64,000 bases of DNA from contig NZ_CBDDRA010000001.1 of assembly GCF_965232925.1 (NCBI RefSeq), positions 1-64,000 on the forward strand, read 5' to 3'. The notes under the pieces are model-generated. The model worked only from the letters and a program-made list of their open reading frames with translations, had not been told where the DNA came from and searched no databases. Source of the stretch: Tumidithrix helvetica PCC 7403. Lineage in GTDB: Bacteria; Cyanobacteriota; Cyanobacteriia; Pseudanabaenales; Pseudanabaenaceae. This document shows positions 49,150 to 54,980 of the stretch, piece by piece (position 1 is the first letter of the stretch; each line of letters begins with the position of its first letter). The position numbers and the translations under genes were made by a program.

Positions 49150-52100
49150 TTGACTGTGAGCGAATATACAAATAAACCTGCAGCCCAATCATCATTCGTC
49201 CCACCTGCCGTACAAATTCAAACACGCCCCTTTGCACCTCCTCAAGTCCAACCATCTGCTGCTCCACAAAACGTAGAATCATCTCAAGCCGAGAGAGACT
49301 CAGAAAATCAAGACAAGCGATCGGCTCAAGAAAATCTTTACTTTACCGATCTTAGCTTCTCTGGTAGCGATGACCGAGGCTCGTCAGAGAGCGTCATGCA
49401 GCGAAAGTGGGAGGGTATCGTTCAGCGATATAAGGAGGGAGGGAACACAGCCCCTGACCCTAATCATGGGTATACCCCCGTTAGAGGCTCGTCACAGAGC
49501 ATCATGCAACGCAAGTTAGATGAGATGCGGCAAAGGGTTAAAGAGGGAGGGAACACAGCCCCTGACCCCAATTATGAATATACCCCCGTTAGAGGCTCGT
49601 CACAGAGCATCATGCAGCGAAAACACCAGGAAATGGTGCAGAGGTATAGGGAAAATCAAGCAAAAACGATACAGGCTAAGTTAGCGATCGGAGCGGTGGG
49701 TGACAAGTACGAGCAGGAAGCAGATCGCGTCGCAGCGGAAGTCGTACAAAAGATTAATGCCCCAGAAAGCGTTCAACGGGAAGAAGCCCCTGAAGAAGAT
49801 GAAGAGATACAGATGAAGCCTCTCTCTGATACGACTCAACCTATGGAAACAGCGTTACCACAAACAGATCGTCAGCCAGAAAATATTGCTTTTGCCCCAT
49901 CTCCACAGGTAGTAGCACCGATTTCTCCAACAATTAATGCCGTTGAAAACGTTCAGAGAGAGGAGGAAGAGGAAGAACGGGAAGAAGAAATAGAAGAAGG
50001 TGGAAAATTACAGATGAAGCCTCTCTCCGAATCTATTCAACGATTCGAATCACCAGAGGATGACGAGGCACTACAAATGAAATCGCTTTCTGATGTAATA
50101 CAGAGAGAAGAGATGCCAGAGGAAGAGGAAGAAATACAGGCAAAGTCTTTGGTGCAAAGGCGGGATACCCTTGATGGAGGAGAGGCTTCAGCAGATTTAG
50201 AGTCATCGATTCAAAGTGCGCGAGGTAGCGGTCAGTCTCTAGATCCTAGTCTGCAAGCAAAGATGGGAGAGGCAATGGGGGCTGACTTTAGCGGAGTGAA
50301 AGTACATACAGATACTCAGTCTGACCAGTTAAATCAATCGATTCAGGCAAGAGCGTTTACGACGGGGCAAGATGTCTTCTTTAGGCAGGGAGCTTACGAT
50401 CCGAGCAGTCTCGGGGGGCAAGAGTTGATTGCCCATGAGTTGACCCATGTCGTACAGCAGAATGGAGGAGCAGTACAACGATCGCCTCAAAAACTGGAGC
50501 AACACAAGCAACATCCTAACCCTAAAGTCTCATCGGCATCAGTGGAAGATTACGAGATTCAAGCGAAAGATGAAATAGCAGGAAATTCCCAAGTCTCATC
50601 AGAGAAGCAGCACCCTAACCAAACTGGAATGCCCGATAGTCTCAAAACAGGTATTGAAAGCCTTTCAGGATATTCAATGGATGATGTGAGAGTGCATTAC
50701 AACTCGGATAAACCAACCCAATTTCAGGCACATGCTTTTGCTCGTGGAACTGAGATACATGTTGCATCTGGTCAGGAGAAACATTTACCCCATGAGGCAT
50801 GGCATGTTGCTCAGCAAAAACAAGGACGGGTGCAACCGACTGTCCAGTACCATGGGGCGATCGTTAATGATGATGCTGGTCTAGAAAAAGAAGCAGATTT
50901 AATGGGGCTAGCTGCTCTGAACGAATCCAATCAAAAGGATTATCGTAAGAACGCTACGCAATTAGTTTCCAATAGCAATGTATATCAATTAAGCGGTTGG
51001 GGTTTTGCACTTACAGCTCTTACAGGTACTTTAATTATGGTTCTAGGAACCTATCTTAAGAAGCAATGTGACGAGCAAGAGGCTAATGAAAAGACAGACC
51101 TGATCGTTACTAATTTTGAAGAACGTATGACCCAAGACGAGGGGTTTGTAGATCACGCTCAAGTTCGGGAAAACAATTTTATTCTAGCTGCAGAGAAATA
51201 TGGAGTAGAAAAATCAGCAGCAAAAGACTTGTTTAACCTGAGCGGAGCTGCTAATAAGGATACGGTAACTGGATTTGATGTAGCCAGCGATAGAGAACCC
51301 TCAGTAAGCAATGCTATAAAATATATTAAAGAGCATAAGGAGGCAACGGGCTTTTATGTCGAGGTAGACATAAGAAACTTAGGAGGGCTAAATAGTGTTT
51401 TAGGACATACTGGTGCTAATGAGGTCTTCAAGCATATAGCCAAACTATGCGATGATAAAGTACAAAACATAAAGACTACAAAAGTTAAGGTAGCAAGCTT
51501 TCGGCATGGGGGAAATAAGTTTAGTTTTTTAGTAGTAGCAGAAGATGGCAGTAAAACCAAAGAATCTGTAGAGAAGCAACTAAATAGCGCATCAGATGAC
51601 ATCAAGAAATTTGTAGAAGAAACGAGTATTGAAACTTATAACAAGAATCCTGAGAAAGTAAATCCTAGTGACAAACTTGCAACTATCGAACATCCAAAAC
51701 ATAAGGGGGAAAAAGAATTTTATGGAACGGGAATTGCATTTGGAGTCAGTCAAATAACAGAAAATAGCACTGTTAATACAATTATAGGTGTTGCAAGTCC
51801 AGAGAATGGCTCTAGTAAGAATGCCACACAATTAGCTTCTCATAACGATACTCAATCCAGTGGTTGGGATTTTGCACTTGCTACTCTTACAAATACTTTG
51901 ATTGTGCCCTTAAGAAATTATCTTCTGTCGCAAAAACATGACGAGCAAGAGGCAGCTAAAAAGACAGACCTAATCGTTACTGATTTTGAAGAACGTATGA
52001 CCCAAGATGAGGGTTTTGTAGACCACGCTCAAGTTCGGGAAAACAATTTTATTTTAGCTGCAATGAAACAAGGAGTAAAAGAACCAGCAGCAAGAAATCT

Positions 52101-53087: not shown

Positions 53088-54980
53088 GTGAGCGAATATA
53101 TCAGCAAGCCCGCAGCCCAATCATCATTTGTCCCACCTGCCGTACAAATTCAAACACGCCCCTTTGCACCTCCTCAAGTCCAACCATCTGCTGCACCTCA
53201 AGCTTCGGAATCCTCTCAAGCCGAGAGAGACTTAGAAAATCAAGACAAGCGATCGTCTCAAGAAAATCTTTACTTTACCGATCTTAGCTTCTCTGGTAAT
53301 GATGACCGAGGCTCGTCTGAGAGGGTGATGCAACGAAAGTGGGAGGGTATCGTTCAGCGATATAAGGAGGGAGGCAACGCAGAACCTGACCCCAATCATG
53401 GGTATACCCCTGTACGTGGCTCGTCACAGAGCATCATGCAACGCAAGTTAGACGAGATGCGGCAAAGGGTCAAAGAGGGAGGGAACGTAGCACCTGACCC
53501 TAATTATGGGTATACCCCTGTACGTGGCTCGTCAGAGAGCATCATGCAGCGAAAACATCAGGAAATGGTGCAGAGGTATAGGGAAAATCAAGCAAAAACG
53601 ATACAGGCTAAGTTAGCGATCGGGGCAGTGGGCGACAAGTACGAGCAGGAAGCAGATCGGGTGGCAGCAGAAGTCGTACAAAAGATTAATGTTCCTGAAA
53701 GCGTTCAACGGGAAGAAGTTCCAGAAGAGGAAGAGAAGCTCCAGATGAAGCCTGCAATCTCCTCAATCCAGCGCGAGGCAATGCCAGAAGAGGAAGAGGA
53801 TTTACAGATGAAGCCCGTAATCTCTTCAATCCAACGCGAACCCGAGGAGGAAGAGGATCTACAGATGATGCCCGCAATCTCCTCAATTCAGCGCGAGGCG
53901 ATGCTAGAAGAAGAGGAAGAACTACAGGCAAAGTCTTTGGTGCAAAGGCGAGACACCCTAGCTGGAGTAGAGGCATCAGCAGATTTAGAGTCGTCGATTC
54001 AAAACGCGCGGGGTAGTGGTCAATCTTTAGAGCCCAATCTGCAAGCAAAGATGGGTGAGGCGATGGGAGCAGATTTTAGTGGCGTGAAGGTGCATACGGA
54101 TTCGCAGTCCGATCGGTTAAATCAATCGATTCAGGCAAGGGCGTTTACGACAGGGCAGGATGTGTTCTTTAGGCAGGGTGCCTACGATCCAAGCAGTCGC
54201 GGGGGGCAAGAGTTGATTGCCCATGAGTTGACGCATGTGGTGCAGCAAAATGGTAATGTGATTCAAAAGAAACCGACGACAACGCCACTAGTGCGAACTA
54301 CTGCAAAAACAAAAGCCAATATCCAAAGAGATGGTGATGAAGCGACTAGTAAGCCCGCAGAAGAACCTGCAAGTAAAGTCGAGGAACTACATCAAGGTGT
54401 AGGCAAAAAATTTATGTTTAAACTCTACGAAGAGGCATCTGTCGCTAAAGTAGAGTTCGATCCGATAGTCTCTAATATTGCTTCTATAACAAATGGCACT
54501 GCAAAAATACCCAAATTAAAAGACCAAAACACAGCAGTGGCAAAGAGTGAAGGCGAATATGGTGGAGATCATTCTCGACTTGTTGATATATGTCGAGCTT
54601 CAATCATTTACAATAGCTATCGCGATTTGATGCTAGGGCTCGGTAAATGCAAGGAAATGCTAGCTCTTGTTCGGGAAAAAAATCGATTTGCCAAGCCAAC
54701 TCCTGCAGGATATCGAGACATCTTATTGAATGTCAGACTTTCTAACGGTCATATTGCCGAACTTCAATTGCATTTACAGCAAATAATGGATGTCAAAAAT
54801 GGAGTTGGGCATAAGCTTTACGAGGAGGTGCGCTCAATTGAACGTGCGGCGAAAGAGGCAGGAAAAGCCTTAGATCCAGAGGAAACAGCTAAGGTAGAGC
54901 AACTTCTCCAAGAGTCAAGAAGTCATTATGACGCGGCTTTGGACAAAGCGCAGAGTTCTGATGAAACTCCTTCTACATAG
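53088..54980 (+). CDS. DUF4157 polymorphic-toxin-like protein with C-terminal RelA/SpoT-like (toxSAS-type) nucleotide pyrophosphokinase domain
   Basis: The N-terminal region of about 430 aa is near-identical to 49150-52698, with DUF4157 HELTHVVQQ. The C-terminus RLVDICRASIIYNSYRDLMLGLGKCKE ... KPTPAGYRDILLNVRLSNGHIAELQLHLQQIMDVKNGVGHKLYEEVR aligns with the RelA synthetase motifs (...NPKPNGYQSIH.VV...EIQIRT..MH..AE.G.AAHW.YKE). The start is GTG. Confidence 0.8.
   Translation: MSEYISKPAAQSSFVPPAVQIQTRPFAPPQVQPSAAPQASESSQAERDLENQDKRSSQENLYFTDLSFSGNDDRGSSERVMQRKWEGIVQRYKEGGNAEPDPNHGYTPVRGSSQSIMQRKLDEMRQRVKEGGNVAPDPNYGYTPVRGSSESIMQRKHQEMVQRYRENQAKTIQAKLAIGAVGDKYEQEADRVAAEVVQKINVPESVQREEVPEEEEKLQMKPAISSIQREAMPEEEEDLQMKPVISSIQREPEEEEDLQMMPAISSIQREAMLEEEEELQAKSLVQRRDTLAGVEASADLESSIQNARGSGQSLEPNLQAKMGEAMGADFSGVKVHTDSQSDRLNQSIQARAFTTGQDVFFRQGAYDPSSRGGQELIAHELTHVVQQNGNVIQKKPTTTPLVRTTAKTKANIQRDGDEATSKPAEEPASKVEELHQGVGKKFMFKLYEEASVAKVEFDPIVSNIASITNGTAKIPKLKDQNTAVAKSEGEYGGDHSRLVDICRASIIYNSYRDLMLGLGKCKEMLALVREKNRFAKPTPAGYRDILLNVRLSNGHIAELQLHLQQIMDVKNGVGHKLYEEVRSIERAAKEAGKALDPEETAKVEQLLQESRSHYDAALDKAQSSDETPST

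Follow-up and report, generated by a model that had tools for sequence, protein, structure and literature searches.

Two paralogous eCIS_core (DUF4157) genes of Tumidithrix helvetica PCC 7403 with putative nucleotide-synthesising effector domains

ExoY, CyaA and anthrax EF are delivered nucleotide-cyclase toxins that flood the recipient with a signalling nucleotide. Tas1 (Apk1) of Pseudomonas aeruginosa is a (p)ppApp synthetase toxin that belongs to type VI secretion (T6SS; structure 6ox6). In extracellular contractile injection systems (eCISs), the cargo is marked by the DUF4157 domain (PF13699, now named eCIS_core), which is present in 36% of eCIS-associated toxins (EATs) versus 0.06% of non-EATs and lies N-terminal to the toxin domains (PMC11297309, PMC8213781). 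Seven DUF4157-fused alarmone synthetases were counted among exported RelA/SpoT homologue (RSH) enzymes (mBio 2025, PMC12691689), and GGDEF and RelA/SpoT domains were reported in polyvalent proteins of phages and plasmids (Iyer et al. 2017, PMC5512222). Here, positions 49,150–54,980 of a 64,000-nt stretch of DNA from the cyanobacterium Tumidithrix helvetica PCC 7403 (Pseudanabaenaceae) were analysed; the whole stretch is called the window below. The region contains two large genes on the plus strand, gene 1 and gene 2. We consider that they are probably paralogous eCIS-type polymorphic effector genes whose C-terminal parts are nucleotide-synthesising warheads.

Gene 1 (TUMEXPCC7403_00205; 49156–52698, plus strand) encodes a protein of 1180 aa according to the open reading frame (ORF) listing, Pfam and an exact match to the public protein WP_425213603.1. 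The protein consists of a leader, repeats, two DUF4157 domains and two successive units, each with a hydrophobic segment, a stalk helix and a GGDEF domain. In gene 2 (TUMEXPCC7403_00215; 53088–54980, plus strand; 630 aa), the front part is shared with gene 1 and a Tas1-like RSH synthetase domain comes after it. A 57-aa ORF (TUMEXPCC7403_00210; 52724–52897, plus strand) is located between the two genes. Identical public proteins were found for all three products; RefSeq labels both large ones merely as “eCIS core domain-containing protein”, and each of these two is a singleton at 90% identity clustering. A preliminary description made from the sequence alone had proposed a tandem DUF4157 pair with a common 5' module and unrelated C-terminal enzymes, and this was borne out by the ORFs, Pfam and the alignment.

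Both ORFs are intact and uninterrupted (1180 and 630 codons). A Shine–Dalgarno-like box, GAGAGGTG, was read from the sequence at 49141–49148, 7 nt before a GTG codon, and again at 53073–53080 (both on the plus strand), with the identical spacing to GTG 53088 of gene 2. Because the spacing is exactly 7 nt at both genes, the start of gene 1 was placed at GTG 49156 rather than at TTG 49150, which agrees with the public annotation of 1180 aa. Thus, the non-ATG starts after a conserved box that had been described earlier stand as GTG codons at both genes, and only the TTG had to be given up. Promoter and terminator scans revealed nothing exceeding the shuffle expectation.

The front module of gene 1 (49156–50484, plus strand; about 445 aa) is 76% identical to that of gene 2 at the protein level over 444 alignment columns, with a 48-residue acidic indel zone. 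It includes a hydrophilic leader with the sequence IQTRPFAP, 36-aa MQRK/EGGN repeats, acidic EEEExLQMKP repeats (pattern EEEE-LQMKP-IQRE in both genes) and the first eCIS_core domain. The first 50 residues of the leader are rich in Pro, Gln and Ser and have a mean Kyte–Doolittle value of −0.53 to −0.64. In DNA, the similarity starts about 30 nt 5' of the start codons and its blocks are 85–91% identical, so that the earlier wording “near-identical” was right about the sharing and somewhat overstated about its degree. The QRK-rich repeats mentioned there were recovered as 108-nt units (36 aa) at 49376–49644 and 53308–53576 (DNA repeat families D1, D3 and D4); acidic units of about 60 nt were also found. 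A PF13699 search (cutoff 22 bits) gave two stretches in gene 1 (E 7.6e-41, 138.6 bits; HExxH motifs HELTH and HEAWH) and one in gene 2 (E 3.9e-32, 110.7 bits; HELTH). The first domain of gene 1 is located at 50239–50469 (residues 364–440) and that of gene 2 at 54027–54254 (residues 314–389), both on the plus strand. The presence of this domain in both genes had been recognised before, but the second copy of gene 1 had been overlooked. The ratio of nonsynonymous to synonymous substitution rates (dN/dS) is 0.13 in the N-terminal part of the module and 0.07 in DUF4157. The front module evolves under purifying selection.

Relatives that share the leader motif (Q[TP]R[PG]F[AT]P), the repeats and DUF4157 come from Pseudanabaena sp. 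lw0831, from Tumidithrix elongata and from a metagenome-assembled genome of a cyanobacterium. The C-termini of the front-module relatives in Pseudanabaena and Tumidithrix are unrelated, have no Pfam match and are each followed by a small ORF. This layout of a constant N-terminal part, variable C-termini and small ORFs is, judging from the sequences, that of a polymorphic toxin family. In Pseudanabaena sp. lw0831 (locus L004), another tandem pair of DUF4157 toxins with the front module is present at 9917–11188 and 12175–14292, and in T. elongata (L003) a single such toxin (10001–12019), with no Pfam match on the C-terminus, precedes a small ORF. These toxin and small ORF units are candidate new toxin/immunity families.

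The layout agrees with that of the EATs with an N-terminal DUF4157 (Geller 2021; Danov 2024), where the same PF13699 HExxH domain precedes an enzymatic C-terminus that varies, the two are set apart by a long linker, and tandem DUF4157 genes occur; the hydrophilic leader of the pair may correspond to the disordered N-terminal packaging signal of EATs. Unlike these EATs, the T. helvetica pair has no eCIS operon within 64 kb, gene 1 contains two DUF4157 domains in one chain, and GGDEF and RSH warheads are not among the enriched eCIS domains.

In gene 2, a pyrophosphokinase domain of the RelA/SpoT superfamily, close to the toxic small alarmone synthetases (toxSAS) and Tas1/Apk1, was located at 54381–54977 (plus strand) by profile, fold and motif evidence. 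A direct search with PF04607 gave no match, even at E 10 on the isolated domain, and neither Pfam nor NCBIfam recognised an RSH domain in residues 432–630. A phmmer search with the C-terminal domain found Tas1 at E 9e-5. In 5.8 billion clusters the domain has 15 homologues, and PF04607 matches 8 of the 16 aligned sequences formed by these and the window domain. The profile of this family matched Tas1 at E 1.5e-15, the small alarmone synthetases RelP/YwaC at 7.6e-8 and RelA at about 6e-3. The AlphaFold2 model of the domain had a predicted local distance difference test (pLDDT) score of 93.2, and Foldseek placed Tas1 first (E 2.6e-11, template modelling (TM) score 0.69–0.71), followed by Rel, RelP, RelQ, SaEAS (an exported Streptomyces synthetase) and CapRel. 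The RSH motif set K..R..K, D-x-x-R, GYRD, E-x-Q and H..Y was tested, and the synthetase motifs LKDQNTAVAK, VDICR, GYRD, AELQLHL and GHKLYEEVR were present; residues D69, R102, G110, Y111, D113, H124, E127 and Y147, each at least 90% conserved across the family, are kept. On the strength of the phmmer match, the family profile, the PF04607 matches of the homologues, the modelled fold and the catalytic residues, the gene 2 C-terminus was accepted as a Tas1/Apk1-like RSH domain; the RelA/SpoT assignment proposed earlier stands on these grounds and not on a direct PF04607 match. Against its orthologues the domain shows dN/dS values of 0.30 and 0.47 and is still constrained.

Gene 2 resembles Tas1 in its best profile and fold match, in the fusion of a synthetase behind a secretion-type N-terminal module, and in the small downstream ORF that its orthologues carry at the immunity-gene position. 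It differs in its cyanobacterial host, in an identity of only about 21%, in the DUF4157/eCIS_core chassis instead of the PAAR/Rhs chassis of the Tas1 group, and in a candidate immunity family that has no similarity to solved chains and is missing from the window. The novelty suggested for an RSH domain on a DUF4157 chassis was not borne out, as such fusions were counted in PMC12691689; gene 2 is a fresh example of an architecture noted there though not studied. Since the products of exported RSH enzymes can be ppApp, ppGpp or both, and no simple sequence rule predicts the acceptor (PMC12691689), the product of gene 2 cannot be read from its sequence.

After the gene 2 orthologues in L001, L002 and L015, a conserved ORF of 72–76 aa was found with the pattern MxLPxYxIVGxRPVK...DVLAYxWxTGEF.... 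Comparison of this partner with PDB sequences gave no meaningful match, and tblastn found no copy of its gene in the 64-kb window. The window ceases to resemble L001 exactly where gene 2 has its stop codon, and the place of the partner gene is occupied by a remnant of an IS630-family transposase (55037–55361, plus strand). The HTH_33 (E 4e-13) and DDE_3 (E 5e-7) pieces of this remnant lie in different frames within about 325 nt, and no intact transposase ORF is present; the IS630 remnant noted earlier behind gene 2 is thereby confirmed. The equivalent protector of gene 2 was probably lost at an insertion or deletion involving IS630. It has also been proposed that exported alarmone synthetases may need no protector, and this idea fits a Microcoleaceae RSH-domain relative, P0006, which lacks a downstream small ORF. 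P0006 (285 aa; L016, 5001–5858) has an N-terminal signal- or lipoprotein-like sequence and is akin to the enzymes that were called “exported alarmone synthetases” in 2025. The gene 2 toxin orthologue of L002 (9584–10666) retains the leader and repeats and has no DUF4157, so DUF4157 may be dispensable for the handling of this toxin.

The second eCIS_core domain of gene 1 is located at 50614–50844 (plus strand; HEAWH). Its similarity to the first is weak, and in the alignment it belongs to the type that immediately precedes GGDEF in the homologues of Moorea and Nostoc. Residues ~476–882 of gene 1 align end to end, with 58% identity, with a whole 420-aa DUF4157–GGDEF protein of Moorea (P0020); because of this alignment, gene 1 looks like a local front module joined to a complete imported DUF4157–GGDEF effector. 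Behind it, an 870-nt tandem duplication with its core at 51069–52238 (plus strand; repeat family D2, 92% identity at 870-nt spacing) gave rise to two modules, A and B. An assembly artefact was considered as the origin of this duplication and rejected, because 6.5–12% of the bases and 52 residues differ between the copies. Over their core, the two units show 93.5% nucleotide identity and a dN/dS of 0.37. In module A, a Gly-rich hydrophobic segment (QLSGWGFALTALTGTLIMVLGTYLK; 50986–51060, plus strand) leads into the stalk helix; its Kyte–Doolittle maximum over 19 residues is 1.63, all DUF4157–GGDEF homologues carry a counterpart, and a membrane anchor is possible.

A hydrophobic segment before each GGDEF domain, as had been proposed, was found in both duplicated units. 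The proposal of two GGDEF-type cyclase domains holds insofar as PF00990 (gathering cutoff 23.8 bits) matched two stretches with 38.5 bits for the whole protein, but only the second module contains the catalytic motif. Module A (51244–51798, plus strand; mapped with hmmsearch, residues 697–881 of P0060) is degenerate, with GGNKF at 51508–51522, and keeps the Mg-binding Asp; its codons AAT AAG correspond to GAT GAG in module B. Module B (52114–52692, plus strand) has GGDEF at 52378–52392 and matched PF00990 alone with 29 bits (E 1.1e-6). About 10 amino acids differ between A and B in the GGDEF domain proper, and two of these are the catalytic Asp and Glu; by our own calculation, 10 random changes in about 170 positions would include both with a probability of about 0.003.

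Module B contains VEVDIRN and RHGGDEF, that is, the Mg-binding Asp and other conserved motifs are kept. Its AlphaFold2 model (pLDDT 92) matched SiaD, WspR and DgcB best among PDB folds, with target-normalised TM scores of 0.7–0.8 to the GGDEF domains of WspR, GcbC and DgcB. Module B is thus similar to the diguanylate cyclases WspR, DgcB, SiaD and PleD in fold, including the long N-terminal stalk helix, and in the canonical motifs, namely the DxLTG-like entry, the Mg-binding Asp, RxGGDEF and the C-terminal AD..E..KK. In contrast to these enzymes, it has no sensory or receiver domain, and the RxxD motif of the inhibitory site (I-site) is absent five residues upstream of GGDEF, where the sequence is IKTVKVKVGKFRHGGDEF. 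Further differences of gene 1 from canonical diguanylate cyclases are DIRNLGGLN in place of DxDxFKxxND, an HPKH insertion and the fusion of the modules in tandem with one dead copy. At the guanine-specifying pair (equivalents of PleD N335 and D344), the Asn is kept in both modules (GGLN) and the Asp is replaced by Asn (GANEVF); because of this replacement, the product may not be strictly cyclic di-guanosine monophosphate (c-di-GMP).

A word-indexed search with the GGDEF part returned 42 relatives in 5.8 billion clusters, including DUF4157–GGDEF proteins of Moorea, Nostoc and metagenomes and gammaproteobacterial proteins of 238–248 aa with lipoprotein-type signals. An exhaustive profile search revealed 278 representatives of the clade at E ≤ 1e-30, and the module states were mapped in 166 proteins. 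Two modules were present in 64 of the 166 proteins, of which 47 have one degenerate and one intact module (35 dead-first, 12 dead-second) and 16 have both intact. Because dead-plus-live is the commonest tandem state, the dead module A looks selected and not decayed. RxxD was missing in 179/180 active modules, and the base-specifying residue of the active modules was Asn in 87 and Asp in 86. A length of at least 1400 aa was found for 57/166 clade proteins (range 1.4–7.8 kaa). Among eight giant proteins examined, two contained a Fic domain, and one protein of 7849 aa was annotated as a methyltransferase; in the giant GGDEF-bearing proteins, Pfam recognised only Fic and GGDEF. They resemble polyvalent proteins, and their presence in the clade fits a delivered-effector role. 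A BFVD fold search gave nothing beyond generic phage GGDEF proteins. Two 248-aa gammaproteobacterial members (L010, 5837–6583; L011, 528–1274) have a lipoprotein-type signal (LSGC) and lie beside pilT/pilU-like ATPase genes; an exported GGDEF domain would have no obvious source of GTP.

The 57-aa ORF starts with ATG preceded at Shine–Dalgarno-like spacing by AAGAGGA. Its product is highly charged and probably helical (MSSEERLKRLGLAHLSDKPEELKKEIERRL...), and no match was found in Pfam, PDB or PADLOC. Homologues occur directly after the DUF4157–GGDEF gene in L006 (Nostoc), L008 and L013, which together with the window gives four loci. Because position and sequence are conserved across distant cyanobacteria, the ORF was regarded as a real gene and functional partner, and by analogy its product is a candidate immunity protein or inhibitor of the GGDEF toxin. 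In L013 (600–2592), a HopA1-domain protein of 454 aa and a 159-aa ORF are encoded just upstream of the DUF4157–GGDEF gene P0017 and its small partner, an arrangement that suggests an effector island.

A link to contractile injection systems (CISs) was found in Nostoc spongiaeforme FACHB-130. There, the DUF4157–GGDEF homologue P0021 is located directly downstream of an eCIS WHD-AAA ATPase gene, at the 3' side of an eCIS cluster in which Pvc16_N, the sheath, the gp19 tube and a GerE-type regulator are also encoded. No eCIS structural genes were found in the 64-kb window, and for this reason the delivery route in T. helvetica can only be inferred. In the literature searched, GGDEF was not described as eCIS or polymorphic-toxin cargo except for the polyvalent-protein note of 2017 (PMC5512222), and GGDEF/PF00990 did not occur in the accessible portion of the text supplements of Danov 2024. 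Within these bounds, and with that exception, the novelty claimed earlier for a GGDEF toxin cargo seems to stand. ExoY, CyaA and EF share the concept with gene 1 and differ in cyclase fold and delivery chassis; neither these toxins nor the polyvalent proteins with GGDEF or RelA/SpoT domains are known to use a DUF4157 module or to pair a dead with a live GGDEF module in tandem. The warhead class, tandem architecture and partner protein of gene 1 thus appear undescribed in the literature searched.

These data allow us to propose the following mechanism. The leader, the repeats and the zincin-like DUF4157 domain would serve to load each protein into a contractile injection particle of the phage-tail type whose genes lie elsewhere in the genome, and the C-terminal enzymes would act in the cytoplasm of the recipient. 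The gene 2 enzyme would take pyrophosphate from ATP and pass it to a purine nucleotide, with (p)ppApp as the most likely product and a collapse of the ATP pool; (p)ppGpp as the product or tRNA as the acceptor are alternatives. Gene 1 may have arisen from an imported DUF4157–anchor–stalk–GGDEF effector whose anchor–stalk–GGDEF unit was then duplicated. Modules A and B would form a single-chain GGDEF pair in which only the second module provides the metal and the catalytic residues. Free of I-site feedback, this pair would turn GTP into c-di-GMP, or into a di-purine product related to it, in an unregulated manner, and the target cell would suffer GTP drain, forced second-messenger signalling or both. 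In the producer, the 57-aa protein would most likely neutralise the cyclase.

Several points weigh against this interpretation. No CIS domain was found in any of the 32 ORFs of at least 150 aa in the window. To our knowledge, c-di-GMP itself is not lethal, and a dead-plus-live pair alone should not make a cyclic dinucleotide. Gene 2 has no adjacent protector and is followed by an insertion sequence remnant, so the cassette could be silent or decaying. The gammaproteobacterial members of the clade occupy housekeeping neighbourhoods adjoining pilT/pilU, and therefore the clade is not exclusively an effector clade. According to Geller et al., GGDEF is statistically depleted in eCIS operons and RelA_SpoT is absent from them.

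A more specific assumption about gene 1 is that its GGDEF domains belong to an undescribed class of delivered single-chain pseudo-dimeric enzymes in which a dead module is paired with a live one, the I-site is missing and the base site holds Asn or Asp; a dedicated inhibitor of about 50 aa would go with them, and their product would be something other than regulated c-di-GMP. Such an enzyme would be an injected weapon, and its clade would serve both eCIS cargo and giant polyvalent effectors. A linear pppGpG-type dinucleotide and a mixed-purine cyclic dinucleotide are candidate products. Taken as a whole, this assumption is speculative and we consider it rather improbable.

Of the alternatives to injected effectors, the one that survives best is that the pair acts inside the producer, whether as cargo or effector of a contractile system that is cytoplasmic or anchored to the thylakoid or in some other way, and that the nucleotide synthetases kill or arrest their own cell under stress or infection. 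In the literature, the cyanobacterial CISs characterised so far (thylakoid-anchored CIS of Anabaena) and those of Streptomyces operate within the cell and lead to lysis or cell death (PMC8894136, PMC10066040). In addition, toxSAS enzymes are also known in toxin–antitoxin and anti-phage systems, and the window is rich in conflict genes of the NACHT, CHAT and Schlafen types. However, PADLOC gave no match for any of the three proteins, and the locus was therefore not filed under a known defence system. The order of front module, variable C-terminus and small ORF is typical of exported toxins, DUF4157 is tied to loaded cargo in the literature, and the lack of a partner for gene 2 in this locus would be a danger if the toxin acted internally. 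We regard an internal role as unlikely.

The pair could also be a decaying remnant, with gene 2 orphaned by IS630, gene 1 carrying an inactivated module and neither gene expressed or functional. The IS630 remnant directly downstream, the absence of the partner ORF known from L001, L002 and L015, the origin of GGNKF in module A from two G-to-A changes and the lack of CIS genes in the window are consistent with decay. At the same time, the long uninterrupted ORFs with matched Shine–Dalgarno boxes and GTG starts, dN/dS values well under 1 in all parts, the retention of every near-invariant RSH residue and the prevalence of the dead-plus-live tandem in the clade (47/64) argue against it, and decay is quite unlikely. 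Least of all do we expect an ordinary cytoplasmic diguanylate cyclase and small alarmone synthetase with an odd N-terminus that tune the c-di-GMP and (p)ppGpp of the producer: gene 1 directly follows a chemotaxis-like operon, gammaproteobacterial clade members lie beside pilT/pilU, and GGDEF and RSH are mostly signalling domains, but the upstream operon terminates in a hairpin before gene 1, a polymorphic family structure with disordered repeats and, in gene 1, two DUF4157 domains takes the place of any sensory domain, the I-site is absent, among solved structures gene 2 is closest to Tas1, a T6SS toxin, and not to a housekeeping Rel or small alarmone synthetase, the homologues are very rare (15 and 42 in 5.8 billion clusters) and not conserved orthologues, and the Nostoc homologue adjoins eCIS genes.

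The chemotaxis-like operon upstream of gene 1 occupies 41589–48995 on the plus strand, with the hairpin near 49008–49036 at its end. It encodes a methyl-accepting chemotaxis protein (MCP) with Cache and HAMP domains and then a 1395-aa CheA-like Hpt-HATPase-CheW-REC hybrid, into which a very long acidic stretch is inserted. The genes downstream of the pair are unrelated. Conflict and STAND-type genes in the window encode a Schlafen AlbA_2-NACHT-HEAT protein (836–3964, minus strand), a CHAT/AAA_35 fragment (7658–8692, plus strand), a NACHT-GUN4 protein (26960–29329, minus strand) and a TPR-CHAT protein (33962–36838, plus strand). An 866-aa bacterial homologue of the eukaryotic Major Vault Protein (MVP) with Vault repeats and the MVP shoulder (E 4e-64) is encoded at 12689–15289 on the minus strand, and the gene of a 700-aa SPFH/Band 7 protein (10483–12585, plus strand) adjoins it. 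A deoxyhypusine synthase homologue (PF01916, E 1.4e-98), here in a cyanobacterium, is encoded at 39752–40879 on the minus strand.

Contractile injection systems are engineered as protein-delivery tools, and only the smaller part of their natural cargo is known. If the pair consists of injected effectors, as we think probable, the locus adds a second family of nucleotide-synthesising warheads beside the alarmone synthetase toxins, and gene 1 is a testable candidate for an injected effector of the diguanylate cyclase type with a candidate inhibitor. Gene 2 extends the Tas1-like toxins to cyanobacteria and represents a natural case of presumed protector loss. The dead-plus-live GGDEF tandems without feedback control suggest a working mode of GGDEF outside current c-di-GMP enzymology. 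Should the pseudo-dimeric enzyme class prove real, gene 1 would encode a weapon that drains GTP or hijacks nucleotide-sensing pathways of the recipient, and eCIS cargo and giant polyvalent effectors would both have drawn on a single GGDEF clade.

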